Positions 18,140 to 48,888 of a DNA stretch of 49,446 nt are shown here, piece after piece. Origin of the DNA: a virus (lineage: Duplodnaviria > Heunggongvirae > Uroviricota > Caudoviricetes); the IMG/VR virus record IMGVR_UViG_2563366799_000006, one strand, 5' to 3'. Position 1 is the first letter of the stretch; every line of letters starts with the position of its first letter. The notes under the pieces were generated by a model. The model did no database searches, was not told the DNA's origin, and worked only from the letters and a program-made list of their open reading frames with translations. The position numbers and the translations under genes are program-made.

Positions 18140-18273
18140 AGCCAGAAACGCTTGAGATACTCCGCGCGCGCTGGCAGCGCCTTCGCATTTATCGCTACCG
18201 GGGATCGGTGCTGGTGGATTATCGCATTCTTCGTAATTTTGTTCGTATCTATCATTCAGCAGGAGCAGCCTAA
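18136..18273 (+). CDS. YlcG-like small Arg-rich protein (45 aa), below ORF-track cutoff
   Basis: ATG at 18136 overlaps the rusA stop (ATGA) and its stop overlaps the Q start (TAATG); hand translation MKPETLEILRARWQRLRIYRYRGSVLVDYRILRNFVRIYHSAGAA; same position as ylcG in DLP12. Confidence 0.45.
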   Translation: MKPETLEILRARWQRLRIYRYRGSVLVDYRILRNFVRIYHSAGAA

Positions 18274-19088
18274 TGAACCTCGAAAACACCGTGAAATATC
18301 ACTTCGCCAAGTCGACGCTTATTAGCGACTCTCCGCGCGCCACTGGTTCAGATTCGCTGACCGGGACGGATGTCATGGCGGCCATGGGCATGACCCAGGA
18401 ACGTGCCGCCATGGGATACAGTGCCTTCCTCGGCAAGATGGGCATCAGTTACAACGATCGGGAGAGGGCGATTGAGTTGCTGTCTGAGTACGCGTTAACC
18501 AAATGCGATAAGGTTGCCGCGCTGCGCAAGCTGGACGATGCGGTTAAGCCACTGGTGATGCACCAGTTGGCCACCTTCGCTTTTGAAGATTACTCCCGCA
18601 GCGCTGCGAGCGTTAAGCAGTGTGATTGTTGCAGCGGGCAGGGATTTATTGAGGCCGACGTGTTCACAATGAAATCTCATTATTCAATGAGGATTCCTCA
18701 ATGGGCGAAAGAGCTTGGTCAGTCACCGAGTGATTTCGAGGTTAAACGACAGGTTCGAGAGGTGGTTCGAGTGCTGTGCTCGAACTGCAAGGGGAAGAAG
18801 GTTGTCAGTTGTGCCTGCAATGATTGCCGGGGACGTGGGAAAGCCGTAGACCAGAAGGAAACGAAGAAACAGGGTGTGCCGGTTATGACTGACTGCAAGC
18901 GCTGCGGCGGGCGTGGATATGAACGCATTCCTTCAACTGAGGCCCACGCAGCTGTTTGCCAGATTACGGATGTAATCAGCCTGGATACGTGGAAGAAGTC
19001 CGTTAAACCGTTCTATGATCAGCTGATTACGAAATTCGATATTGAAGAGGCATGGGCAGAAAACCAACTGAAACAAATAACACGATAA
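18273..19088 (+). CDS. Q: Late-gene antitermination protein Q
   Basis: 271 aa; N-terminus SDSPRATGSDSLTGTDVMAAMGM and Cys-pair zinc fingers (CSNCKGKK...CNDCRGRG...CKRCGGRG); located before the lysis genes. Confidence 0.8.
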   Translation: MNLENTVKYHFAKSTLISDSPRATGSDSLTGTDVMAAMGMTQERAAMGYSAFLGKMGISYNDRERAIELLSEYALTKCDKVAALRKLDDAVKPLVMHQLATFAFEDYSRSAASVKQCDCCSGQGFIEADVFTMKSHYSMRIPQWAKELGQSPSDFEVKRQVREVVRVLCSNCKGKKVVSCACNDCRGRGKAVDQKETKKQGVPVMTDCKRCGGRGYERIPSTEAHAAVCQITDVISLDTWKKSVKPFYDQLITKFDIEEAWAENQLKQITR

Positions 19089-19173
19089 CGGCTATGGAAG
19101 TTAATTCCAGCTATTTACTTTTCCCGAATCTGTGTTAATTTTATCCCAACGATGGGTTAATGCCTTCGTTTCA

Positions 19174-19206
19174 AGCCCCGCGGATAACACCGTGGGGCTT
19201 TTGCGT
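19174..19206 (+). terminator. Intrinsic terminator downstream of Q (tR'-like)
   Basis: AGCCCCGCGG-ataacac-CGTGGGGCT followed by TTTTGCGTTT. Confidence 0.55.
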
Positions 19207-29926: not shown

Positions 29927-29930
29927 CCCA

Positions 29931-31932: not shown

Positions 31933-32371
31933 CCAGTCAATGCGAATTGCTGAACTACTGGAGAGCCGCATTGCGGTTATCTGCTTATCGCTTGGGCTGC
32001 CCGTAGCCTGGCCGAACATACCGTTTACTCCCCCGGATAGCTCACCATACGGGCGTGTTTATGTTCTGCCGGCACAGACGGTGGGGCAAGACCTGGAAGG
32101 TCAATTGCGAACCTATCAGGGCATCCTGCAGCTCAACATCATTGCGCCAGCAGGCAGCGGCGTGACGCAGGCCAGAGGGCTGGCTAAATCTGTCGCTGAT
32201 GCGTTTCCTGAAGGGCTTGCGCTGGTGGATGGTGACCTGACTGTTTATATCAATGGGCCGCCGCAGGTGAGACAACCCATCCAGGACCGGCCAACCTCGG
32301 CGTCCAACGGGTCCAGTGGCTCCATAACCTACACCATTCCCGTCAGCATGCAGTACCGCGCTGACTACTGA
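31922..32371 (+). CDS. Tail terminator-like protein (position-based)
   Basis: 149 aa; overlaps the previous gene by 11 bp. Confidence 0.5.
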   Translation: MASDQSMRIAELLESRIAVICLSLGLPVAWPNIPFTPPDSSPYGRVYVLPAQTVGQDLEGQLRTYQGILQLNIIAPAGSGVTQARGLAKSVADAFPEGLALVDGDLTVYINGPPQVRQPIQDRPTSASNGSSGSITYTIPVSMQYRADY

Positions 32372-32417
32372 CCCGCCAGATGGCGGGTTTTTTATTACCT
32401 AAATTCAGGAGAGTGCT

Positions 32418-33357: not shown

Positions 33358-33380
33358 AGCCCGGTACGCCGGGCTTTCTT
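33358..33380 (+). terminator. Hairpin terminator after the major tail gene
   Basis: AGCCCGG-tacg-CCGGGCT followed by TTCTT. Confidence 0.5.
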
Positions 33381-34059: not shown

Positions 34060-37000
34060 TGACAGACCAGATCGCCTCGATTACTTTGCGGGCCGATGTT
34101 TCTGACCTGAAAACAGCCAGCAACGAACTGGATAAACTCGGCCAGGCGGCGGCCGGTGCTGTAGATAAAGCGGATGATTTAAATAGCGTGTTCCGCGCTG
34201 GGGCTGAATCTGCGAAGCAAGGCAGCGAAGGACTCAAGGAGCAGCAGAACGCGCTCAAAGGGCTGCTGGAGAATATCGACCCGGTTACCAAGGCCTTAAA
34301 CCGCCTGGATGAGCAGCAAGAATCGCTGCGGAAATTCCAGGCCAAAGGTTTCCTGGATACCGATACCTTTCAGGCATACAACAAAATCCTGGATGACACC
34401 CGCCTCAAGCTGACCGACACCGGAGAAGCCGCGGCGCGTGCTCAGGCCGAATTAGCCGCTACCCAGGCGGCAGAGAAGCAGTCCGCAGCGTTAAAGAACC
34501 TTCTTGGATCCATCGACCCGACTATCCGCGCGTTCAATTCGTTGGATGAACAGCACGCACAGCTGGTGGAACATTTCGAAGCTGGGCGCATTAACGGTGC
34601 TCAGTTCGAGCACTTCAACACAATCCTTAACCAGACGCGTGAGCGCCTCTCTGGTGTCGCTGACGTACTACCAGAGGCGCTATCCCGGCAGGAAGCTGCT
34701 GCCCGGCGCGCTGGAATCTCCGTTGGTCAGTACAGCGCAGCAATGCGCACGCTTCCGGCGCAATTCACCGATATCGCCACGCAGCTGGCTGGCGGTCAGT
34801 CGCCGTTCCTGATTCTGCTGCAACAGGGCGGGCAGATTAAAGACCAGTTCGGCTCGGTTCAGGGGGCGCTGTCCGGCGTCGGCGAATACATCCGCAGCAT
34901 GGCTGGGATGATTAACCCTACCACAATCGCACTTGGTGGGCTGATTGGCACGATCGGCCTGCTGGCTGCCGCAGCGTATAACTCCTCGGAGCAATTTGAG
35001 CAGGTGGCACGCTCTGTCATCATGATGGGTGGGGCTGGCTTCTCCTCAATGCAGCAGCTCAACCAGGCCGCTGAGGAAGTGGCTGGCAAGACGAATACAT
35101 CGATTAGCTCCACCGTCGATACGCTGGTTACGTTGAACGATACTGGCAAATATACCGCAAGCCAGATGAAGCAGGTCGCAACGACCATCACCCTCATGGG
35201 TAAGGCCGGAAATGATACCAAAGCGGCAATAAGCGACTTCGGAAAGATTGTCAGCGATCCGGTTAAAGGGCTTGCCAGCCTCAATGAACAATATGGTTTC
35301 GTTGATGAAGCCATGATCAAGCACATTATCCAGCTACGTAAGCAGAAGGGTGAGCAGGCGGCTGTTACCGAAGCTATTGAGCTGTTTGCAGGCGTCATGG
35401 CAAAGCGCGCAGAGGAGACCAACAAAGCGACCGATAATATCGGTCAAACGTGGGAAAACCTTAAAAAGAGCGCTTCTGACACCTTTGGCGATATAGGTAT
35501 TACCGTGCGCGCATGGGGAAACCAGATCATTGATATTTTCGAACTGGTTAAATCCTCGATCAAAGACTTGTTCCTCAATATCACCTCTCTGGACGCCAAG
35601 TTCACCAGCACCATCGCTGGCTGGGCAGACAAAATCCCGGGTGGCGGTGCGCTGGCTAATTTCCTCGGCATGGACGTTGAGGCAATGAAAAAGGCTGGAG
35701 CGGAGGCGGACAAAGAGATTGAGGCGAACAAAAAACGCTATAACGAGCTTTGGAAGCGCGTCACTGCGCCTAACGCACAGGCAAACTATGAGGCTGAAGC
35801 GCGAGGGTCTAACGTAAAAGGTGATGGAGGAACAAGTCGAGAATCAAGAGACGCAGTCTCGAAGCTTGCACAAGACTCAGCCAAAAAGACCAAAGAGGCA
35901 AAAGCCACGCTGGATGCTGGCGATCGCACTCTTGAGAACTACCGCGCCCAGGCCAGAACGTTAACTGAAACACTCGAAACGTTGCGCAAGACTGGGGAGA
36001 CTCAGGTCAGATATACCGAGTTCAGCAAACAGCAATCCCATTTTGCCGAGCTGGACGAGGCTGCTAAGACCCGCGCGCTGACCGCACAGGAGAAATCTCT
36101 TCTATCGAACCGAGAGGCCATCCTCAACGCCGCCAAAGTTGTGGATCAGAAAAATAAGGAAGTCGAGGCCCAGCAGAAGATTAACGGCCTGGCGCAGCAG
36201 GCAAATAAGTATGTTACGCAGATGACTGAAAAGTCTGAGGCATTGCGTAGCGGGGCTGGGTTAAGTAGTCGCATGGCCCAGCGAATGACCGAAGAGGCGC
36301 AGCTTCGGCAGGGCTGGCTAAATGGCGGTGGTAATCTAGAGGATGCTGGCTACGAGAAAGAGCTGGCAGCTCTTCGTAACTACTACGCCGAAGAGGATAA
36401 GCTACGGGGTGACTGGAAAGCAGGGGCAGTTAGTGGCTGGAATGAATATCTTGAGGCCGCCACGAATACCTATGACGCCGTGAAGAACGTCGCCAGCTCC
36501 ACGCTGACCGGCTTGAGCGACATGCTGACTGAGCTGATGATCACTGGCAAAGCATCAGTTAAAGAATTCGGTAAATCCATGCTCAAGATGATCCTGGATG
36601 TTACGAACCGCCTCATGGTTGCCTACGCAGTGCAGGCCGCAATGGGATGGGTAAACGGAGGGGCAGGAGGTGGCAACACACCCGGTGGAGCATACGCGAA
36701 CGCTGCTGCAGGCGTAACGTTCAACGCTAAAGGCGGAGTCTATGAATCGCCGGGCCTAAGCAAGTATGTGAATGGCGTCTACGATTCTCCTCAGTACTTC
36801 ACGTTCCAGGGGGCATCTAAGTTTGCGAAAGGGGGGGTCTTTGGAGAGGCAGGGCCGGAAGCTATTATGCCGTTAGCTAAAGATTCAGCAGGGCGGTTGG
36901 GTGTACGCGCCCAAGGAGGTGGAAGTATTGCTCCTGTAATTAATACCGTCATTAATGTTGAGGCTAATGGTAATGTATCAACCAGCACATCGTCGGATGG

Positions 37001-37112
37001 TGATGCAATGGCGCGTGCTTTAGCCAAGCAGATCAATGATCAGGCAAAAATGATAGTGCTCAATGAGCTTAAGCCTTCTGGCGCTATCTACAACTACATT
37101 AACAAGCGATAA
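34059..37112 (+). CDS. Tail tape measure protein
   Basis: 1017 aa; helical/coiled-coil N-terminal two-thirds, Gly-rich C-terminal region; start overlaps the T stop (TAATG). Confidence 0.9.
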   Translation: MTDQIASITLRADVSDLKTASNELDKLGQAAAGAVDKADDLNSVFRAGAESAKQGSEGLKEQQNALKGLLENIDPVTKALNRLDEQQESLRKFQAKGFLDTDTFQAYNKILDDTRLKLTDTGEAAARAQAELAATQAAEKQSAALKNLLGSIDPTIRAFNSLDEQHAQLVEHFEAGRINGAQFEHFNTILNQTRERLSGVADVLPEALSRQEAAARRAGISVGQYSAAMRTLPAQFTDIATQLAGGQSPFLILLQQGGQIKDQFGSVQGALSGVGEYIRSMAGMINPTTIALGGLIGTIGLLAAAAYNSSEQFEQVARSVIMMGGAGFSSMQQLNQAAEEVAGKTNTSISSTVDTLVTLNDTGKYTASQMKQVATTITLMGKAGNDTKAAISDFGKIVSDPVKGLASLNEQYGFVDEAMIKHIIQLRKQKGEQAAVTEAIELFAGVMAKRAEETNKATDNIGQTWENLKKSASDTFGDIGITVRAWGNQIIDIFELVKSSIKDLFLNITSLDAKFTSTIAGWADKIPGGGALANFLGMDVEAMKKAGAEADKEIEANKKRYNELWKRVTAPNAQANYEAEARGSNVKGDGGTSRESRDAVSKLAQDSAKKTKEAKATLDAGDRTLENYRAQARTLTETLETLRKTGETQVRYTEFSKQQSHFAELDEAAKTRALTAQEKSLLSNREAILNAAKVVDQKNKEVEAQQKINGLAQQANKYVTQMTEKSEALRSGAGLSSRMAQRMTEEAQLRQGWLNGGGNLEDAGYEKELAALRNYYAEEDKLRGDWKAGAVSGWNEYLEAATNTYDAVKNVASSTLTGLSDMLTELMITGKASVKEFGKSMLKMILDVTNRLMVAYAVQAAMGWVNGGAGGGNTPGGAYANAAAGVTFNAKGGVYESPGLSKYVNGVYDSPQYFTFQGASKFAKGGVFGEAGPEAIMPLAKDSAGRLGVRAQGGGSIAPVINTVINVEANGNVSTSTSSDGDAMARALAKQINDQAKMIVLNELKPSGAIYNYINKR

Positions 37113-37125
37113 TTGAGAGGTTTTA

Positions 37126-37338
37126 ATGGACTTAAAAGTTGACGGCATCAATGTTTATGATGATGAGGAAGGAAAGATTGTTTCAGTAACCGTGCATGTA
37201 ATGAGGGATGAATATCGAAGTCATGCAACGACATACGTTGAGCTCCCGTATTCTGATGCGCTGACAATCCATGAAATTCACACGCAGGCGCTCAATGCCG
37301 CCAAAGAGAAACTTAAGCTGATCGCAAGCAGCATCTGA
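37126..37338 (+). CDS. Hypothetical small protein
   Basis: 70 aa; GAGAGG RBS. Confidence 0.45.
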   Translation: MDLKVDGINVYDDEEGKIVSVTVHVMRDEYRSHATTYVELPYSDALTIHEIHTQALNAAKEKLKLIASSI

Positions 37339-37393
37339 TCGTTACATTCTGACATCCCCTGGTTAATATGTAAAAAACCATATTGTTCAGGGG

Positions 37394-37822
37394 ATGATAA
37401 TGAAATTACTCTTCATTAGCGTTGTTGCGTTGTGTTTGGCCGGTTGTGCTACTGAAGCCGTTTTACCAAGCCAGGCGAAACAAGCACCCAAAGAACGATT
37501 GCTCAAGTTCCAGTCGCCAGGTGTAGGGGAACAGGCGAAGCTAATTGTGGTGCGCGATAAAGGATTTCTTGGAAGCGGTTGTTTCGTCGGCGTGTACCTA
37601 AACCAAGAGAAGGCAGCTATTTTGGATCCAGGTGAGAAGGCCGAATTTTACCTCAAACCGGGAGAATGGAATGTTGCTTTAATGGGGGAAGGAAAGATGT
37701 GCATCGCTGACAAGATACCTGCTGGAAGAGACTTTGTGCTCACTGCGAACACTACAAAAGCCGTCCGTTTATTTGCAGATCCGAGCGGAAACACTGACGT
37801 CAAAACACTGCCGAACCAATAG
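37394..37822 (+). CDS. Lipoprotein (cargo gene between tape measure and M)
   Basis: 142 aa; signal peptide with lipobox LAGC; terminator downstream. Confidence 0.65.
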   Translation: MIMKLLFISVVALCLAGCATEAVLPSQAKQAPKERLLKFQSPGVGEQAKLIVVRDKGFLGSGCFVGVYLNQEKAAILDPGEKAEFYLKPGEWNVALMGEGKMCIADKIPAGRDFVLTANTTKAVRLFADPSGNTDVKTLPNQ

Positions 37823-37842
37823 CCCCCAATACCTAATAACCA

Positions 37843-37870
37843 GCCTCGTATCCGCGGGGCTTTTTGTTGT
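37843..37870 (+). terminator. Intrinsic terminator (AGCCTCG...CGGGGCT family)
   Basis: AGCCTCG-tatccg-CGGGGCT followed by TTTTTGTTGTTG. Confidence 0.5.
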
Positions 37871-38283
37871 TGCAGGTGGGCGGGGTGGTTAAAAAGTGAG
37901 CACCACATTCAAGGGGGCCGAAATATTACAGCAATCTTTGTTGTCGTGCATTCCAACCAAGTCATGTATTTTGTGCAAAAAGTGCTATTTATGGCCTTCT
38001 TGAACTCTTCAACCGGATCATAGGCCCAGCCTATCTCCTGAGAACGTGACAATAGTTTACTATTACCTGAGGGGTAACTTCTGCGAAAGTGTGGCTAACT
38101 TGCAAAGTGGCCGCGATAAAATTCGTCGAACATGCATCTATCTTCAGACATAGGCCCATTGCTCAAATATGACGAATGGTATTAAATTGTCCTCAACCAC
38201 TTGAAGTGGTCATTAATTCTTTGGATGTGTTTACATCCTACAATTTGAGAAAGCACTGCCAAACGTGCATGAGGGTGATAATC

Positions 38284-38463
38284 ATGGGTCACGCATTAAA
38301 AAAGGCAGATCGCTTGTACATTCCGCCTCGTGACAAATCCACGGTGGCGAAACCTCGTGCAGCGATCAGCGAAGCATGTTCACACACTGGTCAAGTTAAA
38401 AATGCCTTTGAGTTTGGGTTTGCTCGTTATGAGAAGGCGATGGAAGAACTTTCAAAGGTCTGA
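38284..38463 (+). CDS. Putative antitoxin partner of the Doc-family toxin (family not recognised)
   Basis: ATG at 38284 with GAGGG RBS (ORF track extends to 38176); 59 aa; 10 bp upstream of the Doc gene; perfect palindrome ACCACTT-G-AAGTGGT at 38206-38220 upstream. Confidence 0.45.
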   Translation: MGHALKKADRLYIPPRDKSTVAKPRAAISEACSHTGQVKNAFEFGFARYEKAMEELSKV

Positions 38464-38473
38464 GTAGAAACGG

Positions 38474-38971
38474 ATGACGATAGAGTATGTTGAAGGAGTC
38501 AATTATCTTTCCATTGACGATATCGTTTACATCAATAGGTCTCTGATCGAGACTCAGACGCCAAATGAGCCAATAGGCGTACTGAATCCGAACAACCTCA
38601 GTTCTTCACAGTCCAGACCAAGTACGATTCGATATTATGAGCAGACAGACGATATGTTTCGCCTGTCTGCTGTTCTTATTGAAAGCCTGATCCAGAATCA
38701 TCCATTCGCAAATGCAAACAAACGCACCGCTATGATGGCTGGATACGTATTCCTGTTGCTGAATGGATATGAGCTTACAGCACCCAGTGATGAGGTCGTA
38801 ACCATCGCAGAGGGTTTGGCTCGTAAGGATTACTCAGTGGAAGACCTGGAAAATTGGTTATGCCACTGGTCCCGAGAGTACGATTCCAGAACGTTATGTG
38901 CAACAGGCGGAAATTCGCTTCAGGCTCTCGTGGCGACTTCACACTACATCCGAATCATATCGAATAACTGA
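38474..38971 (+). CDS. Doc (death-on-curing)/Fic-family toxin
   Basis: 165 aa; motif HPFANANKRTA (compare P1 Doc H.F.DANKRTA). Confidence 0.75.
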   Translation: MTIEYVEGVNYLSIDDIVYINRSLIETQTPNEPIGVLNPNNLSSSQSRPSTIRYYEQTDDMFRLSAVLIESLIQNHPFANANKRTAMMAGYVFLLLNGYELTAPSDEVVTIAEGLARKDYSVEDLENWLCHWSREYDSRTLCATGGNSLQALVATSHYIRIISNN

Positions 38972-38972
38972 A

Positions 38973-38993
38973 TCCGCTAAGAGGCGGTTTTTT
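38973..38993 (+). terminator. Intrinsic terminator after the Doc gene
   Basis: Short stem CCGCT/GGCGG followed by seven T. Confidence 0.5.
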
Positions 38994-39015
38994 TGCCGAC
39001 CAATACTGAATTATA

Positions 39016-39038
39016 TAACCCGCTTCGGCGGGTTTTTT
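39016..39038 (+). terminator. Intrinsic terminator (second of a tandem pair)
   Basis: AACCCGC-ttcg-GCGGGTT followed by TTTTTT. Confidence 0.65.
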
Positions 39039-39050
39039 TATGGAGCAAAT

Positions 39051-39401
39051 ATGGCCGTTGAAACATACAACTGGCGATCTCAGCTCGGGGCTGGCGCGAT
39101 TGAATATAGTCAAACGGTGCGTGCTGCGCAGTTTGGCGATGGCTACGAACAGGTGGCCGAGAACGGCATCAACTCCACGGCGATCCAGGTGCCAATGAAA
39201 CACGTTGGCAGTGAGTCTGAGGTAAACGCAGTGCGCGACTTCCTCCTGGCTCATACCGTTAAAGCTTTTATCATCACGCCGCCCGGCGAAGCGAAGGGGC
39301 TTTATCGGGTAGTCGCCGATTCCGTACGGAAAAATCAGATCAGCAGCAAGTTTGCTGAGCTGACGTTCACCATCAAACGGGCTTACGGAGTGTATGCATA
39401 A
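39051..39401 (+). CDS. M: Minor tail protein M
   Basis: ATG at 39051 with GGAG RBS (ORF track extends to 38898); FGDGY motif shared with lambda M; gene order M-L-K-I-J. Confidence 0.7.
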   Translation: MAVETYNWRSQLGAGAIEYSQTVRAAQFGDGYEQVAENGINSTAIQVPMKHVGSESEVNAVRDFLLAHTVKAFIITPPGEAKGLYRVVADSVRKNQISSKFAELTFTIKRAYGVYA

Positions 39402-40171
39402 TGGCATTAGTCGATCAGGCGGCGATGCTGGCACCGGGTGGCAGAGTTCGCCTGGTTGAAGTTGACGCCTCAGAGTTCAGTGGCGGTATTCACCGTTTCC
39501 ACTACGCACCTTTCCCCCATACACCGGAAGAGATCGACGCTGCCAATGGTGATGAAGAAAAGCTCGGACCAAAGCCAATCGTATTCGGTGGCAATACCTA
39601 CGATTTTTGGCCGTTTCAGGTAGCAGGCCTGGAGCTTTCAACAGACCAGGCCGCAGAGCCGACACTCAGCGTTTCCAACCTCGACGGTCATATCACGGCG
39701 CTATGCCTGCAATTTAAAGACATGGTTAATGCCAAAGTGAGCATTATCGACACCTATTCGGTTTACCTCGATGCCGTGAATTACCCTGGTGGGGTGAACC
39801 CGACCGCAGACCCGTCGATGTTCACGCTTCAGACCTTCTGGCTTGACACGAAAACCTCCGAAGACGACGAAGTGGTTTCATGGTCACTCAGTAGCCCCGC
39901 AGACTTGCAGGGGCTTGTTATCCCAACCAGACAAATCACCTCGCTCTGTGAATGGGCGCTACGCGGGCAGTACCGGAGCGGCGATGGATGCACCTATAAC
40001 GGTACGGCATATTTCGACGCGAAGGGGAACCAGGTTTCAGATCCTGCCCTTGATGTATGTGGTGGATGCTTCAGTGACTGCCGTAAACGATTTGGCGCCG
40101 GCCTGGCAGATCCTAACGCGGCAATTCTCGACTTTGGCGGCTTTCCGGCAACCGTTCTCTTCACCCGATAA
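39401..40171 (+). CDS. L: Minor tail protein L
   Basis: 256 aa; motifs PTLSVSNL, YLDAVN, C-terminal Cys cluster, DFGGF, as in lambda L. Confidence 0.85.
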   Translation: MALVDQAAMLAPGGRVRLVEVDASEFSGGIHRFHYAPFPHTPEEIDAANGDEEKLGPKPIVFGGNTYDFWPFQVAGLELSTDQAAEPTLSVSNLDGHITALCLQFKDMVNAKVSIIDTYSVYLDAVNYPGGVNPTADPSMFTLQTFWLDTKTSEDDEVVSWSLSSPADLQGLVIPTRQITSLCEWALRGQYRSGDGCTYNGTAYFDAKGNQVSDPALDVCGGCFSDCRKRFGAGLADPNAAILDFGGFPATVLFTR

Positions 40172-40183
40172 CCGGACATAGCA

Positions 40184-40915
40184 ATGAATAAAACCATATT
40201 GGCAGCTATCCGTGCTCATGCGCTGGAGGAATCCCCGCGCGAGAGCTGCGGATTCGTTATTCAGTCTGGCCGTCGCCAGCGCTATATTCCTGTACCAAAC
40301 ACTCACGAAAATCCAACAGAGCATTTCCGCATCGATGGCGAGCATTGGGCGAACGCCGAAGATATCGGGACGATTGTGCGCGTCATCCATTCCCATCCTG
40401 GCGATGGAGCAAGGCCGATTCCATCCGATCTGGACCGCCAGCAATGCAACAACTCCGGCGTGGTCTGGGGTATTTACGCGCCGGATAGCGACGAATACGC
40501 TGAGATAATGCCGGAGGCGGTACCCCTTATCGGGCGTCCGTTTATTCTGGGCTCAAATGACTGCTGGGGGCTGGTAATGGATTGGCATGCCACCCAAGGC
40601 GTGAAGCTGAACGATTTTCGCGTCGATTACCCGTGGTGGGAAAGCCAGTACCCGGACAATCTCTATTTCGAAAACTGGGAGCGGGAAGGGTTTGTCGAAT
40701 GCGATCCGGCACCAGGCTGTATGGTCATCATGCAGGTTGAATCCAGTAAGTGGAACCACGCGGGGATCATTACCGAGGAAGGTGAACTGCTTCACCATCT
40801 GTATGGGCAGCCATCCTGCATCACGCCGTATGCGCGTGGTTATTTCAAAGACAGGACGATGATCTGCGTCCGTCACAAGGACCTGCCACAGGAGATAAAG
40901 CCATGGCGCGTTTAA
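40184..40915 (+). CDS. K: Tail assembly protein K (JAMM/MPN + NlpC/P60)
   Basis: 243 aa; HSHPGDGARPIPSDLD JAMM motif; Cys/His peptidase motifs. Confidence 0.85.
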   Translation: MNKTILAAIRAHALEESPRESCGFVIQSGRRQRYIPVPNTHENPTEHFRIDGEHWANAEDIGTIVRVIHSHPGDGARPIPSDLDRQQCNNSGVVWGIYAPDSDEYAEIMPEAVPLIGRPFILGSNDCWGLVMDWHATQGVKLNDFRVDYPWWESQYPDNLYFENWEREGFVECDPAPGCMVIMQVESSKWNHAGIITEEGELLHHLYGQPSCITPYARGYFKDRTMICVRHKDLPQEIKPWRV

Positions 40916-41502
40916 CCACTATTCGTCTGTATGGCGCACTGGGCGCCCGGTTCGGGCGCGTGCATAAACTGGCAGTGCAGACATCTGCCGAAGCGGTCAA
41001 AGCCCTGTGTATCAACTTCGACGGACTGGAAGACTATCTAATGAATGCAAAAAAAAATGGCATGACCTTCGCGGTGTTTCGCGGTAAGCGCAACATAGGC
41101 GTGCAGGACTTCCAGGAGCTGGCAGGCGATAGCGATATTCGCATAGCGCCGGTTATGGAGGGGGCGAAGAAGGCGGGTATGTTCCAGACCATCTTGGGGG
41201 CAGTGATGGTGGTCGCCGGTATTATCGTCGGCGTGGCGACCGGCTGGACCGGTGTAGGTCTCACCTTTGGTGCCGGACTTATCATGTCGGGCGCGTCAAT
41301 GATGGCTGGTGGAATTTACCAGATGCTTTCGCCCCAGCCCAAAGGACTACAGGGGCGAGACGATCCTGACAATAAACCATCATATGCCTTCGGTGGCTCG
41401 GTGAATACCCTTGCGATGGGTAACCCGGTCGCGCTTCTTTATGGTGAGCGCGAGATTGGCGGCGCCATCATCAGTGCCGGCATAGTCGCAGAAGACATCT
41501 AA
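40903..41502 (+). CDS. I: Tail assembly protein I
   Basis: 199 aa; overlaps K; hydrophobic Gly-rich central segment as in lambda I. Confidence 0.8.
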   Translation: MARLTTIRLYGALGARFGRVHKLAVQTSAEAVKALCINFDGLEDYLMNAKKNGMTFAVFRGKRNIGVQDFQELAGDSDIRIAPVMEGAKKAGMFQTILGAVMVVAGIIVGVATGWTGVGLTFGAGLIMSGASMMAGGIYQMLSPQPKGLQGRDDPDNKPSYAFGGSVNTLAMGNPVALLYGEREIGGAIISAGIVAEDI

Positions 41503-41521
41503 AACTCCTTTCTGAATATCA

Positions 41522-41546
41522 AGCACCCAATTGGGTGCTTTTTTTA
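41522..41546 (+). terminator. Hairpin plus T-run between I and J
   Basis: AGCACCC-aatt-GGGTGCT followed by TTTTTTT. Confidence 0.55.
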
Positions 41547-41556
41547 TGGATGTAAT

Positions 41557-44500
41557 ATGGAAGCGATCACTGGTGCAAAGGGTGGCAGCCAGAAGCAGCA
41601 CACACCTGTAGAACAGCCCGATTCGGCTCAGTCAATGGCGCGCTGCCGCATGCTGCTGGCGCTCGGGGAGGGGGAGTTTGCTGGTGGCCTGGATGCGACC
41701 CGGATATTCCTGGACGGTACGCCGTTGGGAAACCCCGACGGAACGATGAATTTTGAAAATGTGTCATGGGATTTCCGGCCTGGCACACAGACCCAGACAC
41801 CAATACCGGGATTCCCTGCAGTCGAGAATGAAACTACGGTTGGGGTATCGCTGACAAAGGCCACACCATGGACCCGCGCACTGAGTAACACCCAGATTGA
41901 CGCGGTGCTGGTTCGTATTGGCATCCCTGGGTTACAGCAGCAGGAAAACGATGGGGATATTGTCGGCACTACGGTTCAGTACCATATTGATCTGGCGGTG
42001 GACGGTGGCGCTTACTCGACAGTCATGACGAAAACCGTCACAGAGAAGCTCAGCTCGCTCTATGAACTAACCCACCGTATTAATCTTCCCAAAGCCAGCA
42101 CTGGCTGGCAAATTCGAGTGGTGCGTGACACCGATGACAGCACCAGCCAGATGCTGCAGAACAAAACGCAGGTGCAAGCGATTACTGAAGTGATCGATGC
42201 TCGCCTGCGATATCCACACACAGCGCTGCTGTACGTGTCCTTTAACGCAAAGTCATTCAACAACATCCCTAAGATTTCCTGCATGCCGAAGGGGCGCATC
42301 ATCCGAATCCCTTCGAACTATGATCCAATAGCGCGGACTTATAGCGGAACATGGGACGGGACGTTTAAATGGGGCTGGACGAATAACCCGGCGTGGATTT
42401 GGTTCGATGTTCTGACTGAGCCGCGCTTCGGCCTTGGGCGCCGCGTGACGCCAGAAATGCTCGATAAGTGGGAGCTCTATCGCATCGCCCAGCGCTGCGA
42501 CCAGAAGGTACCCGACGGGAAAGGCGGAAGCGGTACCGAGCCACGCTTCATGTTTGACGTTTACATCCAGTCCCAGGCTGATGCCTGGCAGGTGATTAAA
42601 GATATTGCCGCGGGCTTCAACGGAATGACTTTCTGGGGCAACAACATGTTCAATGTTGTCTCTGACATGCCGGCGGACACTACGAAGTTGCAGATCCTCA
42701 CTCGCGCATCAGTGGTGGGTAAGCCGGTGTACTCGAGTGGCAGTGAGAAAAACCGATTCTCCAGCGCGCTGATTAACTTCAGCGATCCGGATAACCACTA
42801 CCAGGACCGCACCACGGCAGTGATGTTTCCGGAACTGGTAAGGCAGTTCAAGTTTAAGCAGACACAAATCACTGCGATCGGTTGTACGCGTGAGAGCGAG
42901 GCGCAGCGGCGTGGCGGGTGGGCGGTGTATTCCAACTCCCTTGACCGCATTATCACGCTTCAGACTGGACTTGATGGCTTTGTATTCGTGCCGGGCACCG
43001 TATTTGCGTTTGCAGATGAACGCCTGTCAGGGCGCGTTTACGGCGGGCGTATCACCGGGTATAACGCTGGTCTTAAGGCCGTGACCATTGACCGGGGCAC
43101 CAGTGCGGTGGCGGGCGATACGCTGATGATTCGCACCCAGGGCGGTACCGTTGAAAGCCGGGTGATACAGGCCGTAAATGGCACGCAGCTGATCCTGTCC
43201 ACGCCGTTCACGGCGGCGCCATTACCTAATGCCGTATTCGTCATTGATGCTGGTCAGCTGCGCCTGCAGTATTTCCGGGTAACGAACCTAAAATTTGATG
43301 ATGAGGAAAACACCTTCACCATTACCGGTGCGGAGTATAACGCGTCGAAATACGACGCCGTTGATAACAATGCTCGCCTCGATACTCCTCCGATAAGCCT
43401 GATTCCGACCGGGCTAGTTAACCAGCCGACCAACATCGTGGTATCGAGCTATGATGCGGTTCGCCAGGGGCAACGCGTGGCCACGCTAACCGCCTCGTGG
43501 GATGCGCCAATTGATAAAGACGGCAAACTGCAGTCGGACGTAATAGCGTACCGGGCACAGTGGAAGCGCGGAAATAACGAATGGGTAAACGTGCCTGAAA
43601 CCGGGTTACGAAATATCGAAGTGCCTGGCATTTTCGAGGGCGATTACCTTGTGCGCGTCCGTGCGATTAACTCTGGGGGAGCGTCCAGCCTTTGGGCCAC
43701 GTCTGCGTTGACCCATCTTACCGGCCGCACCGGTGAAGTGCCCAAACCTGTCGGACTAACAGCAACAGAGGATGTTGTATTTGGGATCAACATTACATGG
43801 GGTTTCCCCGCAGATACCGCCGACACCCTGAGCACGGAACTGCAATACAGCGCTTCAGTCGATGGGGCAAATCCAATGCTTTTGGCGTCGGTGCCGTATC
43901 CTCAGAAACTCTATCAGCAGATGGGGCTGAAGGCAGGGCAGGAATTCTGGTACCGGGCACGGCTGGTTGACCGCATCGGGAATCAGAGCGACTGGACAGA
44001 CTGGGTGCGCGGGCAGGCCAGCATCGATGTTTCCGATATCACCGATGCAATCCTGGAGGACATGAAAGGCTCCGATACGTTCAAAGACCTGATCGAGAAC
44101 GCGGTGGACAGCAATGAAAAAATTGCTGGCATGGCTGACGAAATTAAAAACCATGCCGACGAACTCGAGCAGCAGGCGAAAGACATCCTGGAGAACGCTG
44201 ACGGGCTGGCTCAGGCCGAAGTGAAGATCGACGAGATTTCTGTGTCGATGGACGGCATGACGGGAGGAGTGAAGAACTCGGCAATCGCGATTATTCAGAA
44301 TGGGCTGGCGCAGGTGGTAAGCCGTCGCTCGCAGACCGCCACGAACGCCGGGAACAGTGCCAGTATAGACAGAGTGGATACTACGATTGCCGATACCAGC
44401 CAGGCGGTCGCACGCGCGCTGGTCACACTGGATGCAGAAGCTGGTGGCAATATCTCTAACTCAACGGACCTGACAGAAACTCTTGCTGATTTCACCCAGG

Positions 44501-45036
44501 CTTCGGCAACAAAAATCAACACTCTGACTGTTAAATCAGGCGAAAACAGTGCAGCGATAAACGTCAACGCACAGGCTATAGCAGATGTAAACGGTAACCT
44601 CAGCGCGATGTATAACATCAAGGTGGGGGTGTCCAGTAACGGGCAGTATTACGCTGCCGGGATGGGTATTGGGGTTCAAAATACACCCTCCGGCATGCAG
44701 TCACAGGTAATCTTCCTGGCAGACCGTTTCGCCGTGACTACTATGGTCGGCGGGACTGTAACACTGCCGTTCGTTATCCAGAATGGCCAGGCCATTATCA
44801 GGGATACAGTCATTGGCGACGGGACCATAAGCAATGCAAAAATTGGCAATTACATCCAGTCGAACAATTATGTTGCCGGCTCTGTTGGCTGGAAACTGGA
44901 TAAGTCCGGGACGTTTGAGAACTACGGTTCGACAGCTGGGGAGGGAGCCATGAAGCAGACCAACCAGACAATCAGCGTCAAGGATGGCAACAACGTTCTG
45001 AGAGTGCAGGTTGGCCGATTAACGGGGGTGTTCTGA
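41557..45036 (+). CDS. J: Host specificity protein J (central tail fibre/tip)
   Basis: 1159 aa; follows I; size and position. Confidence 0.9.
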   Translation: MEAITGAKGGSQKQHTPVEQPDSAQSMARCRMLLALGEGEFAGGLDATRIFLDGTPLGNPDGTMNFENVSWDFRPGTQTQTPIPGFPAVENETTVGVSLTKATPWTRALSNTQIDAVLVRIGIPGLQQQENDGDIVGTTVQYHIDLAVDGGAYSTVMTKTVTEKLSSLYELTHRINLPKASTGWQIRVVRDTDDSTSQMLQNKTQVQAITEVIDARLRYPHTALLYVSFNAKSFNNIPKISCMPKGRIIRIPSNYDPIARTYSGTWDGTFKWGWTNNPAWIWFDVLTEPRFGLGRRVTPEMLDKWELYRIAQRCDQKVPDGKGGSGTEPRFMFDVYIQSQADAWQVIKDIAAGFNGMTFWGNNMFNVVSDMPADTTKLQILTRASVVGKPVYSSGSEKNRFSSALINFSDPDNHYQDRTTAVMFPELVRQFKFKQTQITAIGCTRESEAQRRGGWAVYSNSLDRIITLQTGLDGFVFVPGTVFAFADERLSGRVYGGRITGYNAGLKAVTIDRGTSAVAGDTLMIRTQGGTVESRVIQAVNGTQLILSTPFTAAPLPNAVFVIDAGQLRLQYFRVTNLKFDDEENTFTITGAEYNASKYDAVDNNARLDTPPISLIPTGLVNQPTNIVVSSYDAVRQGQRVATLTASWDAPIDKDGKLQSDVIAYRAQWKRGNNEWVNVPETGLRNIEVPGIFEGDYLVRVRAINSGGASSLWATSALTHLTGRTGEVPKPVGLTATEDVVFGINITWGFPADTADTLSTELQYSASVDGANPMLLASVPYPQKLYQQMGLKAGQEFWYRARLVDRIGNQSDWTDWVRGQASIDVSDITDAILEDMKGSDTFKDLIENAVDSNEKIAGMADEIKNHADELEQQAKDILENADGLAQAEVKIDEISVSMDGMTGGVKNSAIAIIQNGLAQVVSRRSQTATNAGNSASIDRVDTTIADTSQAVARALVTLDAEAGGNISNSTDLTETLADFTQASATKINTLTVKSGENSAAINVNAQAIADVNGNLSAMYNIKVGVSSNGQYYAAGMGIGVQNTPSGMQSQVIFLADRFAVTTMVGGTVTLPFVIQNGQAIIRDTVIGDGTISNAKIGNYIQSNNYVAGSVGWKLDKSGTFENYGSTAGEGAMKQTNQTISVKDGNNVLRVQVGRLTGVF

Positions 45037-45037
45037 T

Positions 45038-45340
45038 ATGGCTTATGGAATACAGACCTGGGATGCTTCGGGAAACCCCAACAACTACGGAATCAAGCCC
45101 GTTTCCGTTGTTGGACGTATACAACTTGCCGCCGGACAAAACTCCGGCAGCTGGTCTTTCACTGTACCCTCAGGAATGAAGGTCGGTTTTGCGCTCTCAC
45201 TTGATGAAGGAGGTAACAGCGTAGGGAGGAGCATTGTCGCGTCAGGGAACACAATAACCGTAACCGCAGCCTCTTCTGTGGGCCTGGGTAATTACCCGGC
45301 CTCTAAATGTGAGGTGGTCGTTTTCATGGAGAAAGCATAA
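45038..45340 (+). CDS. Hypothetical tail-associated protein (WDASG motif)
   Basis: 100 aa; start 2 bp after the J stop. Confidence 0.5.
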   Translation: MAYGIQTWDASGNPNNYGIKPVSVVGRIQLAAGQNSGSWSFTVPSGMKVGFALSLDEGGNSVGRSIVASGNTITVTAASSVGLGNYPASKCEVVVFMEKA

Positions 45341-46014
45341 TGGCCGAATTTGGCGCGATGATATTAATGGATAACGGGAATCCCTTTGTAACGCCACAAT
45401 CAACGCCTTTCTGTCTTTACGGGAAGTATACCTTCAATTCATCCGCGAATGGCAGTTCTCAGCAGGTTGCTCAAAATATCGCTTTAAACGCTGATTACCC
45501 AGTGATGGTTTTTATCAAAACCACCAATACAGCACAGCCCACTCCGGTTATGTCTTACAGGAACGGCGGTAATGTGTATGTTGCTGGTGTTAATCCCTAC
45601 AACCAAAGTTTCACTTTAACGGCGTACGTTTTTGCCATATTCCCGCAGATATTACCGAAATGGGGTTTGGCAATATGGGATGCGAGCGGAAAGCTTGTGT
45701 TAACTAATGAGTCCCGTGTGCTATCAGACCTGCAGACGGTTGGCACGCCTGGTGCAAACGGCGGGATAAATATTGACCAGACGCTGAGCGGGTCATGGGC
45801 CGTTGCACCTGCTCAGTTGGGTCAGACCATCATTGTGAATAATTCAACCCAGCCTCCGACTATCTACACGATAAATGCTTATTCTTCATGCAGGTTTGAC
45901 GGGGCCAATACGAGGATAAACGCAGGGGGGACCTCCACTGGGGCAGGTTCACCTGGAGGGGGAACGAATACTGGCATTTCATTAACCGCCATAAATACAG
46001 CGGCCTATGATTGA
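45340..46014 (+). CDS. Hypothetical tail-associated protein (WDASG motif, paralogous segment to the previous gene)
   Basis: 224 aa; start overlaps the previous stop. Confidence 0.5.
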   Translation: MAEFGAMILMDNGNPFVTPQSTPFCLYGKYTFNSSANGSSQQVAQNIALNADYPVMVFIKTTNTAQPTPVMSYRNGGNVYVAGVNPYNQSFTLTAYVFAIFPQILPKWGLAIWDASGKLVLTNESRVLSDLQTVGTPGANGGINIDQTLSGSWAVAPAQLGQTIIVNNSTQPPTIYTINAYSSCRFDGANTRINAGGTSTGAGSPGGGTNTGISLTAINTAAYD

Positions 46015-46125
46015 TTGATCGTTTTTAGCGATCAATAACATAATATTGATCTATCCAATCAATTATACCCACCAGAATTGTATTGGTATCGTCTAAGATA
46101 CTGAATTCCTCTGGATACTATCAAA

Positions 46126-46359
46126 ATGAGAAAACTGATTATCTGCATGGCAGGCGCTGTCATGCTTACAGGATGCGCTGGCGTAATTGAGAAACAGGAA
46201 CCAGTTTGCAGCGGCACTGCAATCGTTGGCGGTCAGGAAACTACGGTTCAGATTTACGGTGTGCGTAAACAAAACAACCAGACGCAGTACCGGGCTGGAT
46301 ATCCTTTCAGCTGGCGCTGGGTAAGTGCGAATACATTTACCGAAACAACCTGCAAATAA
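46126..46359 (+). CDS. Small lipoprotein (Cor-like superinfection-exclusion candidate by size and position)
   Basis: 77 aa; lipobox LTGC; between J and the tail fibre; terminator downstream. Confidence 0.6.
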   Translation: MRKLIICMAGAVMLTGCAGVIEKQEPVCSGTAIVGGQETTVQIYGVRKQNNQTQYRAGYPFSWRWVSANTFTETTCK

Positions 46360-46382
46360 CCCACTACGCTTAAACATAAACC

Positions 46383-46403
46383 TCGCTCCGGCGGGGTTTT
46401 TTT
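46383..46403 (+). terminator. Intrinsic terminator
   Basis: CTCGC-tccg-GCGGG followed by TTTTTTT. Confidence 0.5.
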
Positions 46404-46419
46404 ATTGCCTGGAGAAAAT

Positions 46420-47685
46420 ATGCTTTATAACACCGGCACCATCGCCATTAATGGAAATACCGCCACCGGGACGGGTACAAACTGGACGGCACCGGCCAGC
46501 CAGGTCCGCGCTGGCCAGACGATCATCGTCATGTCTAACCCGGTGCAGATGTTCCAGATTTCATCTGTGAACAGCGCCACGTCAATGACGGTTACGCCTG
46601 CTGCTTCCCCGGCGCTGAGCGGCCAGAAGTATGGAATCCTGGTGTCCGATAACATCTCTGTCGACGGACTGGCGCAGGCGATGTCGCAGCTCATCAAAGA
46701 GTATGACGAGAACATTGGCGCGTGGGAGACATTCGCCACTACCTCAGCAAACCAGACCATCACCGTTACCATCAACGGAACCTCCGTTAATATTCCAAGT
46801 ATTGGCGCGCTTGCCAGAAAGGGGTCCAACAACGATATCACCGAGCTGAAAGGGCTCACAACTGCGCTTTCTGTTGCACAGGGCGGGACTGGGGCAAAGA
46901 CCGAAGCTGACGCTCGCACAAACCTCGGTTTAGGAGACAGCGCCACAAGGAACGTCGGAACGGCGGCCGGAACCGTGGCAGCTGGCGACGATTCACGGCT
47001 TGGAAGCGTTAACGGTAAAACGGGGGGGACGATTTCATCTGCTGTGACGATCAACGGTGTTGGTGGCGGAGCAACTGACTGGCATACAAATGCCGGCGGT
47101 GGTTTAGGGGTCAGAAAGGGAAGTGGCGGTGATAACTCCATTGAGATGAATAATACGACAAATGATTCATCTCAGGGCAATTATGTAAACCAGATAGTTG
47201 GTAAGTGGTATAGCGGTTCATGGGCGCTAGGTGCAATACGGAGCGGCTCGACTCCACTTGATCGTGTTCAGTTAAATGTGATAGCGGAATCTGGTGGGGC
47301 AGCCGCATCGTTTATGTTTTACCCTGATGGTCGTGGCACTGGTGGTCAATGGGTATCGCTCTCAGATGCGCGTATAAAAAAAGACATCGCGCGCATATCC
47401 GATCCTCTCATAAAGATGAAAGCCATTAAAGGCTGCTTTTGGGAGCGTATAGACAATGAAACTACGGGTTACGGCTTTATTGCACAGGACGTTGAGCAAG
47501 TATTTCCCGAAGCTGTTAAAGGTGGCTATGATATTACTCTGGAGGACGGAACAGTTATTCCTGATGTGAAAACTGTCGATACTTACGGGGTTGCTGCAGC
47601 TTTGCACCATGAGGCAATTCTGGCCCTAATGGTTAGGGTCGATAATTTGACGAGTAAGGTGGAAAAACTGGAACAAGGAAGCTGA
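46420..47685 (+). CDS. Side tail fibre with C-terminal S74-type intramolecular chaperone domain; C-terminal part lies in an invertible segment
   Basis: ATG at 46420 with GGAG RBS (ORF track 46405 uses TTG); C-terminus ...SDARIKKDI...GFIAQDVEQVFPEAV; crossover site inside the gene at 46913-46938. Confidence 0.8.
   Translation: MLYNTGTIAINGNTATGTGTNWTAPASQVRAGQTIIVMSNPVQMFQISSVNSATSMTVTPAASPALSGQKYGILVSDNISVDGLAQAMSQLIKEYDENIGAWETFATTSANQTITVTINGTSVNIPSIGALARKGSNNDITELKGLTTALSVAQGGTGAKTEADARTNLGLGDSATRNVGTAAGTVAAGDDSRLGSVNGKTGGTISSAVTINGVGGGATDWHTNAGGGLGVRKGSGGDNSIEMNNTTNDSSQGNYVNQIVGKWYSGSWALGAIRSGSTPLDRVQLNVIAESGGAAASFMFYPDGRGTGGQWVSLSDARIKKDIARISDPLIKMKAIKGCFWERIDNETTGYGFIAQDVEQVFPEAVKGGYDITLEDGTVIPDVKTVDTYGVAAALHHEAILALMVRVDNLTSKVEKLEQGS
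46913..46938 (+). other. gix/hix-like inversion crossover site (left)
   Basis: CTCGCACAAACC-TC-GGTTTAGGAGAC, imperfect 12-2-12 dyad with AAACC..GGTTT core. Confidence 0.55.
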
Positions 47686-47692
47686 ATAATTT

Positions 47693-47721
47693 GCAGCCCG
47701 TAATTTGCCGGAACGGGCTGC
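47693..47721. terminator. Hairpin between the convergent fibre cassettes (possible bidirectional terminator)
   Basis: GCAGCCCG-13 nt-CGGGCTGC; AT-rich flank on the minus-strand side. Confidence 0.35.
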
Positions 47722-47738
47722 AGTTGAATGCTCAGGAT

Positions 47739-48818
47739 TCATGATGCCGCTATTTTTAGCTTAAGCTCCTGGAGCTCTTTCTGTGTTGTCTCCAGCTGTT
47801 TAATGACGTAGTTCAATGCCAGCACGGTATCAAGCATGATGACGTTGTTATCCAGTGCCAACGTATCATCAGCATCAACCCTGTTTCCTTCACTATCAAA
47901 CTTTGGCGCAGCAGGGACCAGCTTTACGTACTCACTATCAATCTTCATGACGTCCTGAGCGATTACACCTCGGCGAACTCTCTCACGAGGGTCATCGTTG
48001 TAGACGTAAGTTGCTGGCAGGAATTTCCTGATATTCTCGTATGACTGATAACCATCATCATATTTAATATCGTGCTTCAGCGTAATGTCACAGTTAGGCT
48101 GCTTCTGGAAAATATAGTTCCCGGAAAGATTCCCACCAGCGTTGGCATATATATCACCGTTTGCTGTCGTGAATTGAAATATACGCTGACCGGCAGAGCC
48201 ACCATCCCCAAGTGTTGTTATTGCCACATCCGCCCACGGACTAGGCCCGGTAGCTATAGAACCAAGCCCTACCGTTGAAGAATATCCGCCACTGCATTGA
48301 CTATGCCAGCGGGCAAAGGGAATGAAACCAGCATCATTATTAACTGCAACATTACCCCTAAAAAAAGATATATTTCTTTGCCATGTATTAATGTCTGACC
48401 AGGAGCCACCATATCCAGCTCCATTTGCTCCACACGAAGATGATTTGAATCTCTCATCAGGGTAAAATAAAAATGAACCCGCCGTACCAGTTCCGCTATT
48501 TACATTTAACTGCGCTCTGTCTAAATTAGTCCCACTCCCCCGAACGCCGCCAAGAGACCAGTTCCCATTATACCAAGCTCCTCCCACAGCGTTTACATAA
48601 CTTCCGACAGTCCCATCCCCTGTAATGTTGTATAGCTTAACAGCCTTATCACCACCTTCCTGCGTGGATACTCCAATACTATTTCCCTGAGTTACCATCA
48701 AACTGCCGGTAACATTTCCCCCTGTTTTTTTATCGACAGTATTCAACCGCGAATCATCCCCGGCTGCCACGGTTCCGGCCGCCGTTCCGACGTCCTTCGT
48801 CGCGCTACTTCCTAAACC
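47739..48818 (-). CDS. Alternative tail-fibre C-terminal cassette (promoterless; expressed only after inversion)
   Basis: Minus-strand frame open from the right crossover site to the stop at 47739-47741; begins SATKDVGTAAGTVAAGDDSRL, parallel to the + fibre; own C-terminal chaperone-type domain (RGVIAQDVMKIDSEYV); ORF track 47739..48770 uses an internal GTG. Confidence 0.65.
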   Translation of the reverse strand, partial: GLGSSATKDVGTAAGTVAAGDDSRLNTVDKKTGGNVTGSLMVTQGNSIGVSTQEGGDKAVKLYNITGDGTVGSYVNAVGGAWYNGNWSLGGVRGSGTNLDRAQLNVNSGTGTAGSFLFYPDERFKSSSCGANGAGYGGSWSDINTWQRNISFFRGNVAVNNDAGFIPFARWHSQCSGGYSSTVGLGSIATGPSPWADVAITTLGDGGSAGQRIFQFTTANGDIYANAGGNLSGNYIFQKQPNCDITLKHDIKYDDGYQSYENIRKFLPATYVYNDDPRERVRRGVIAQDVMKIDSEYVKLVPAAPKFDSEGNRVDADDTLALDNNVIMLDTVLALNYVIKQLETTQKELQELKLKIAAS

Positions 48819-48832
48819 GACGTTTTATAGAT
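48807..48832 (-). other. gix/hix-like inversion crossover site (right, inverted)
   Basis: Reverse complement reads ATCTATAAAACG-TC-GGTTTAGGAAGT; right half matches the left site 10/12, same central TC. Confidence 0.55.
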
Positions 48833-48888
48833 TGCTCTCGAGCGGCCTGGCCGATAACTTCACCTGATTTTTTTGCAGAAATAACTGG

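Follow-up and report, generated by a model that had tools for sequence, protein, structure and literature searches.

Why should a hairpin with the form of a strong transcription terminator lie inside a phage tail operon, directly before the gene for the host specificity protein? The question is raised by a stretch of 49,446 nucleotides from a virus of the Caudoviricetes (IMG/VR record IMGVR_UViG_2563366799_000006; the whole of this DNA is referred to below as the window), in which such an element separates tail genes I and J. The original prediction held that a terminator within the tail operon could attenuate expression of J and thereby set the stoichiometry of the tail tip.

Intra-operon terminators in lambdoid late operons have been described by the authors of the phage L genome, who stated that their roles are not known and named two options: partial termination, or the halting of transcription that has not been antiterminated (10.1101/2020.10.05.325894). 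Phage L and the window are alike in having predicted Rho-independent terminators in a late operon with a single Q-type-controlled promoter, but phage L has the virion module of a P22-like podovirus, with other gene junctions, whereas the window encodes a lambda-like siphovirus tail.

The I-J junction of a lambdoid prophage

The window is a lambdoid prophage whose virion module is common to phage HK639. A whole-window comparison with HK639 found only this module, from terminase to J, to be shared (79-90% identity), the early regions being different. Over the segment 41000-42200, which spans the junction, identity is 88.5% to Escherichia phage HK639 and 99.4-99.8% to prophages of several E. coli chromosomes; among the carriers are E. 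coli H5 and H6 (99.8%). The junction comprises the following features:

40903..41502, plus strand: tail assembly gene I, 199 amino acids (Pfam PF06805, Lambda_tail_I)
41503..41520, plus strand: spacer from the I stop codon to the hairpin, pyrimidine-rich and fast-evolving
41521..41540, plus strand: predicted terminator hairpin, AAGCACCC, an AATT loop and GGGTGCTT, a perfect 20-bp palindrome
41539..41545, plus strand: U-tract of seven T, the first one or two of which double as the last bases of the stem
41546..41559, plus strand: conserved junction ATGGATGTAATATG, with a weak Shine-Dalgarno sequence GGAT (41548-41551), a 5-nt spacer and the J start codon (41557)
41557..45036, plus strand: gene J, central tail fibre or host specificity protein, 1159 amino acids (Pfam FNIII-A_GpJ, Phage-tail_3, Phage_Tail_Tip)

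Over its first 250 residues J shares 97.6% identity with the host specificity protein of HK639, and genes K, L and M were also confirmed by Pfam. Beyond J lie ORFs at 45038-45340 and 45340-46014 and a minus-strand ORF at 46093-46377, none with a Pfam match, and a strong plus-strand terminator (46378-46399) closes the block 3' of J.

A hairpin with the form of an intrinsic terminator

The letters at 41521-41546 read AAGCACCCAATTGGGTGCTTTTTTTA. Positions 41521-41528 pair with 41533-41540 around the AATT loop (41529-41532), forming eight pairs (five G-C and three A-U) when both A-U pairs are counted. The seven-pair version (41522-41528 with 41533-41539) is the same stem minus its outer A-U pair, and the 7-bp stem, 4-nt loop and seven T of the original prediction, placed 10 nt before J, are contained in this structure; 10 nt is the distance to the J ATG from 41546, the end coordinate given there, and from the T-run itself it is only 11 nt. 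The gap between I and J amounts to 54 nt, in which only 18 nt, and no gene, separate the I stop codon (41500-41502) from the hairpin, and the U-run stops 2 nt before the GGAT.

Folded alone, the hairpin has a free energy of -12.7 kcal/mol (z = -4.6), a value reached by 0 of 200 dinucleotide shuffles; the strong hairpin with a T-run that had been noticed between I and J is real. A terminator scan of 35000-49446 placed it among the four best sites. When the whole window was scanned for hairpins with dG <= -11 kcal/mol and at least six T in eight positions, 16 sites passed, against 3.2 +/- 1.7 in 60 dinucleotide shuffles; the compact, clean sites lie on the plus strand in intergenic gaps, and the hairpin before J is the sixth on that strand. 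It has a G+C-rich stem with a short loop and an uninterrupted U-tract 3' of the stem, and it lies in noncoding DNA on the transcribed strand. By form, the hairpin and T-run look like a Rho-independent (intrinsic) terminator, and may be expected to terminate transcription.

Other readings of the same letters were rejected. A bidirectional terminator is contradicted by the minus-strand tail, GATATTCA, and by the lack of a convergent gene. Frameshifting or slippage at UUUUUUA does not fit a run that lies outside any ORF, 37 nt past the I stop codon, with the hairpin 5' and not 3' of it. In a single-sequence fold the CU-rich spacer pairs with the Shine-Dalgarno and start region of J, and we considered an extended structure that would mask the J ribosome-binding site; this was rejected because the spacer is unconserved and because RNAalifold of 18 diverse spacers from relatives retained this hairpin alone, with no conserved pairing of the upstream spacer to the J ribosome-binding site. 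A search of the whole window against Rfam at gathering thresholds matched no family, and with neither a conserved alternative structure (RNAalifold) nor a conserved upstream spacer, the element lacks the marks of a regulated attenuator or riboswitch.

The annotated terminators of HK639

The GenBank record of HK639 (HM208537.1) carries a "terminator" feature at 19137..19160, between the genes for the tail assembly and host specificity proteins, which aligns with window 41522-41545. No base differs between the two phages in the hairpin, the T-run or the J leader, which hold the same position between I and J, in a surrounding virion module that is 83-90% identical. By this alignment, the hairpin before J is the ortholog of the annotated HK639 terminator, itself a sequence prediction. 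The same record has five further terminators within the late operon, of which those at 4901-4922, 9019-9040 and 16631-16655 correspond to hairpins that we had found independently in the window (~27910-27929, 32370-32389 and 39017-39034, respectively); the one at 9019-9040 precedes HK639_12, the major tail protein. The finding is an ordinary one, already known in kind from lambdoid late operons and already annotated in HK639.

At the junction that follows the major tail protein gene, a single hairpin (33359-33378) with a degraded T-run is present in the window; at the same junction HK639 has an extra gene, HK639_13, between two terminators (10003-10029 and 10850-10873), again an accessory gene bounded by terminators.

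Conservation of structure rather than of sequence

Relatives of the junction were collected in three sets: 26 loci from genomes of other Enterobacteriaceae, retrieved with the I protein; 80 viral contigs, retrieved with the J N-terminus; and 80 lambda-type viral contigs. All 43 unique cassettes preceding J have a hairpin of <= -8 kcal/mol directly before the T-run, built from stems of four unrelated kinds (5' arms AGCACCC, AACCCGC, AAGCCGC and GGCCACC). Thirty of these cassettes have the stem type of the window (type A, AGCACCC / GGGTGCT), and the numbers of minority bases in each column of their alignment are as follows:

5' stem arm: 0, 0, 0, 0, 1, 0, 4
3' stem arm: 0, 0, 0, 1, 0, 0, 0
Loop, four columns: 1, 14, 1, 12
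Seven columns 5' of the stem: 13-16 in six columns, 1 in one

Six variant stem sequences occur, four of them through C-to-T changes that retain a G.U pair. Past the closing T of the stem, the T-run has six T in 28 of the 30 type-A relatives and five in the other two. A near-invariant stem and U-run beside a diverged loop and spacer, with variants that mostly preserve G.U pairs, point to purifying selection. Judged from these alignments, selection at the I-J site keeps the structure together with the U-run and leaves loop and upstream spacer free to vary.

The remaining stems at this site are AACCCGC-TTCG-GCGGGTT, AAGCCGC-CAGAGT-GCGGCTT and, in phage mEp235, GGCCACC-TTCG-GGTGGCC, and all three are followed by the same T-run and then by the leader ATGGRYGYAATATG. 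A formal covariation count across stem types was dropped, since MAFFT placed types A and B one base out of register and a fold-based realignment would have been circular; in its stead we report what fraction of the start-anchored cassettes have a hairpin and how many distinct arms occur.

Phage lambda (NC_001416) has a hairpin of its own in the I-J gap, at ~15464-15481 (AACCGCC-TGCG-GGCGGTT, then TTGTCATTT / TTGTCATTTATGGAG). It stands in the same place, directly before the J ribosome-binding site, it has the same design of 7-bp stem and 4-nt loop, and TTTATGGA follows the stem in both phages, but its stem sequence is unrelated to that of the window and its T-run is interrupted (TTTTGTCATTT), which by sequence makes it the weaker terminator. 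Across the 80 lambda-type loci a variable loop sits on a conserved stem, and a variant stem, AGCCGCC/GGCGGCT, occurs where the upstream DNA differs. The lambda record does not annotate the I-J hairpin, and our literature search found no paper on it.

Nine more distant J-encoding phages had a readable I-J junction. A hairpin with a T-rich tail occupies the gap in five of them (mEp235, Acinetobacter phage qsb1, Klebsiella phage Roth42, Salmonella phage 36 and an Stx1a phage); in the other four (a Dhillonvirus, Burkholderia phage vB_E264, Klebsiella phage VLCpiS8c and Providencia phage PSTRCR_117lys) the gap or the hairpin is absent. Since some J-bearing phages do without it, the hairpin is not essential for expression of J. 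A hairpin between I and J is also present in T1-like phages, which are classed as virulent and are not known to form lysogens or to carry a Q gene.

A late operon with lambda-type Q and qut and serial predicted terminators

The window has the parts of a lambda-type late antitermination system, and hairpins comparable to the one before J recur along the operon that it would control:

18273..19088, plus strand: lambda-type Q antiterminator gene (Pfam PF03589, Antiterm; match to Q-lambda chain 7UBM_Q, E 2.5e-48)
19113..19168, plus strand: pR'-like late promoter with a qut / sigma-dependent pause element (alignment with lambda 44484-44649)
19173..19200, plus strand: tR'-like terminator just 3' of the late promoter (11-bp stem, -21.1 kcal/mol)
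19455-19474: strong terminator before the holin gene
32370..32389, plus strand: intra-operon terminator directly before the major tail protein gene (32418-33350), equivalent to HK639 9019-9040

The initial transcribed region reads CAACGATGGGTTAAT, exactly as in the pause/qut element of lambda. The tR'-like terminator is much closer to pR'/qut than it is in lambda. The Q protein, of 271 amino acids, is lambda-type at both ends and has about 65 extra residues in the middle, including a match to the DnaJ-type motif CXXCXGXG. Further along, serial terminators lie near 21345, 27929, 29946, 32388, 37861, 39033 and 41539, and in all about eight comparable sense-strand terminators are spread along the late operon.

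The Q gene, its pR'/qut loading site and tR' all lie upstream of the hairpin in the same transcription unit. A promoter scan of the plus strand from ~38262 to 44843 found no promoter-like site, the stretch between the T-run and the J ATG included, so that J would depend on read-through. Lambda Q is known to form a nozzle on the RNA exit channel of RNA polymerase that precludes the formation of terminator hairpins (PMC9388147). A different route of read-through, RNA-based antitermination of the HK022/HK639 put type, was rejected: the early region of HK639 has a putL-like antiterminator RNA, but neither HK639 putL nor the M3-like RNA finds a match in the window. The absence of both from window 1-22000 indicates a different early antitermination system.

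A sister cassette before M and accessory genes at both junctions

Much the same unit stands before gene M, at the end of a region of accessory genes:

38176-38463: small ORF upstream of the Fic/Doc ORF, no Pfam match
38474-38971: Fic/Doc-family ORF (Pfam, E 2e-12)
38974-38987 and 39017-39034: two terminators 3' of the Fic/Doc ORF
39017..39053, plus strand: sister cassette, AACCCGC-TTCG-GCGGGTT (39017-39034), seven T and ATGGAGCAAATATG, with the start of M at 39051

The 21-nt motif TTTTTTATGGANSNAATATGG, which comprises the T-run and the junction, occurs twice in the window against 0.02 copies expected, once before J (41540) and once before M (39034). The true start of M is likely the ATG at 39051; the Pfam Phage_min_tail match begins at residue 55 of the longer M ORF. 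HK639 annotates the start of its M (HK639_19) upstream of its own "terminator" feature, and that start has probably been set too early.

Of 25 relatives, 23 have a hairpin and T-run before M, and ten different 5' arms occur among them. The hairpin before M ends a region of accessory genes that begins after the tape-measure gene. The match to HK639 is lost at 38185 and picked up again at 39027, within this hairpin. The pair of ORFs at 38176-38971 looks like an accessory cassette of toxin-antitoxin type inserted between the tape-measure gene and M. HK639 carries different genes in this position.

Some relatives have an insert of 0.5-1 kb between I and J that carries plus-strand lipoprotein-like or HNH ORFs, and a hairpin still abuts J. 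These ORFs, given by locus number, are:

L013, 3177-3791, plus strand: signal-peptide ORF
L023, 3171-3599, plus strand: signal-peptide ORF
L024, 3169-3552, plus strand: signal-peptide ORF
L025, 3188-3472 and 3561-3974, plus strand: signal-peptide ORFs
L029, 3187-3585, plus strand: signal-peptide ORF
L042 (IMGVR_UViG_2654587654_000001), 655-1452: ORF of 265 amino acids with a C-terminal HNH-like motif, between I and a window-type hairpin before J

Most of the I-J gap ORFs in prophages of other Enterobacteriaceae have a lipobox-like cysteine, and each insert is closed by a terminator beside J. From their predicted signal peptides, these ORFs probably encode accessory lipoproteins, and the HNH ORF of L042 probably encodes a homing endonuclease. 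The two junctions also share DNA between genomes: a 31-nt stretch of the cassette before M in the window is identical to the cassette before J in L013, and an exact search with its 28-nt core found it before J in L023-L026 and L102 as well.

A moron is a unit of promoter, gene and terminator inserted between late genes, a concept that goes back to HK97 and HK022. The definition is given in PMC2629481. Like the terminator of a moron, the hairpin beside J closes an inserted lipoprotein or HNH gene in the relatives, and the sister hairpin closes the Fic/Doc cassette before M in the window; the hairpin before J in the window, in contrast, lies only 18 nt from I with no gene between, and is not a moron terminator there. 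The arrangement of a moron, an accessory gene with its own promoter directly upstream of the terminator, fits L013, L023-L026, L029 and L042, and not the window.

Possible functions of the hairpin before J

The reading that we hold to be probable, if with restrained confidence, is that the hairpin before J is an intra-operon intrinsic terminator that is read through by Q-loaded RNA polymerase, stops only polymerase that has not been modified, and marks a junction for accessory genes. We infer termination, read-through and insulation at this site from the elements described above. Late transcription would start at the lambda-type pR'/qut and would need Q to get going; Q, loading onto RNA polymerase there, would confer resistance to terminator hairpins, and the modified polymerase would pass the hairpin before J as it would tR' and roughly seven other terminators of the operon. 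Because Q-loaded polymerase prevents terminator hairpins from forming, the hairpin should not much reduce J mRNA during lytic growth. Polymerase unmodified by Q, engaged on stray transcripts in the lysogen or on independently expressed accessory genes, would be stopped, and J and the genes beyond it would be insulated. The site is also the fixed 3' edge of a junction at which relatives gained lipoprotein genes and an HNH endonuclease, a hairpin always remaining beside J. Some observations count against the insulating part of this reading: the plus strand from ~38262 to 44843 offers no promoter-like site for transcripts that would need a stop, terminators of its own stand between the nearest accessory cassette (38176-38971) and M, and insulation in the lysogen cannot explain the hairpin of the T1-like phages.

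The terminator in the original prediction stands, by its canonical anatomy, its annotation in HK639 and its conserved structure; the attenuation attached to it is unlikely. Attenuation would mean that a fixed share of late transcripts ends at the U-run despite Q, leaving less mRNA for J than for M, L, K and I. Of the two options named for phage L, partial termination is one (10.1101/2020.10.05.325894), the terminator is strong by sequence and conserved in position, T1-like phages included, and the P22 ant region, which lies before the tailspike gene, is believed to affect the level of tailspike (PMC2629481). Against these points stand the lambda-type Q and qut of the window, given that Q precludes terminator hairpins (PMC9388147), and the number of terminators, for some eight in series, each even modestly efficient, would leave the distal genes starved. 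Nor does the placement of terminators follow copy number, as the one at 32370-32389 directly precedes the gene for the major tail protein, the most abundant component of the tail. In the lambda virion gpI, gpJ and gpL are trimers and gpM is a hexamer (PMC10721106); with gpI and gpJ both trimeric, equal amounts are needed and no step-down from I to J is required. The relative expression of lambda late genes, moreover, was reportedly found by Sampson et al. (PNAS, 1988) to be set mainly at translation initiation.

Intercistronic hairpins act as barriers to mRNA decay in E. coli operons such as malE-malF, and the hairpin before J, a stable intercistronic element conserved as a structure and similar to those after other late genes (for example 29930-29947), might likewise block 3'-to-5' exonucleases after endonucleolytic cuts downstream and so stabilise M-L-K-I, or define a processed end for the J segment. 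We think this rather unlikely: the strictly conserved U-run, the hallmark of a terminator, would be superfluous to an exonuclease barrier, and there is no sign that I and J are needed in different amounts. The U-run could instead serve translation of J: lying 5' of a weak Shine-Dalgarno sequence, it would act as an enhancer that binds S1 or as a standby site, with the hairpin keeping the ribosome-binding site clear of upstream structure. The weakness of that sequence, the 2-nt distance from U-run to GGAT and the conservation of a U-run-ATGGA-N6-ATG unit before both M and J speak for such a role, yet it leaves unexplained why a G+C-rich hairpin precedes the U-run in all 43 unique cassettes before J and in 23 of 25 before M; some relatives express J without any gap, and conserved pairing with the ribosome-binding site was not found among the spacers compared. 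We regard it as quite improbable. Very doubtful, too, is the view of the hairpin as an evolutionary scar, the leftover terminator of an accessory gene that once lay between I and J and now of no function. Accessory genes at this junction in relatives do end in a terminator beside J, and homology between the window and HK639 does resume within the sister hairpin before M, but a scar should not keep a stem and U-run almost invariant across genera of the Enterobacteriaceae while loop and adjacent spacer diverge heavily, nor stem variants that mostly preserve G.U pairs.

Least likely of all, and in our view barely credible, is a DNA-level binding site for a dimeric regulator. The 20-bp palindrome AAGCACCCAATTGGGTGCTT is perfect, but it occurs once in the window even with three mismatches allowed, relatives vary its centre and swap both arms for unrelated ones while pairing and T-run are retained, and a one-sided T-run is a feature of RNA and not of a DNA site. 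On the single copy and the replaceable arms we rejected a palindromic operator; the single copy likewise sets the palindrome apart from dispersed REP- or MITE-like palindromes.

A broader proposal finds support in the 31-nt identity between the cassette before M in the window and the cassette before J in other genera. The hairpin-U-run-Shine-Dalgarno-ATG units before M and J might be portable junction cassettes, docking points for the exchange of accessory genes and homing endonucleases from one junction or genome to another. They would be kept as a structure in lambda- and HK639-type prophages and in other phages with a J gene, the T1-like among them, and would have a dedicated role in the expression of the receptor-binding protein besides, through calibrated partial termination or transcript processing. 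In this full form we consider the proposal improbable.

As it stands, the hairpin before J is of little import, being a predicted terminator of a kind routine in lambdoid late operons and one that the nearest sequenced phage already has annotated. If partial termination before J were real, it would provide one answer to the open question of what intra-operon terminators are for. The comparative pattern, a hairpin that stays beside the start of M or J while its sequence is exchanged, illustrates two known ideas: that Q-controlled late operons tolerate strong internal terminators, and that such terminators mark the junctions at which prophages acquire accessory genes.
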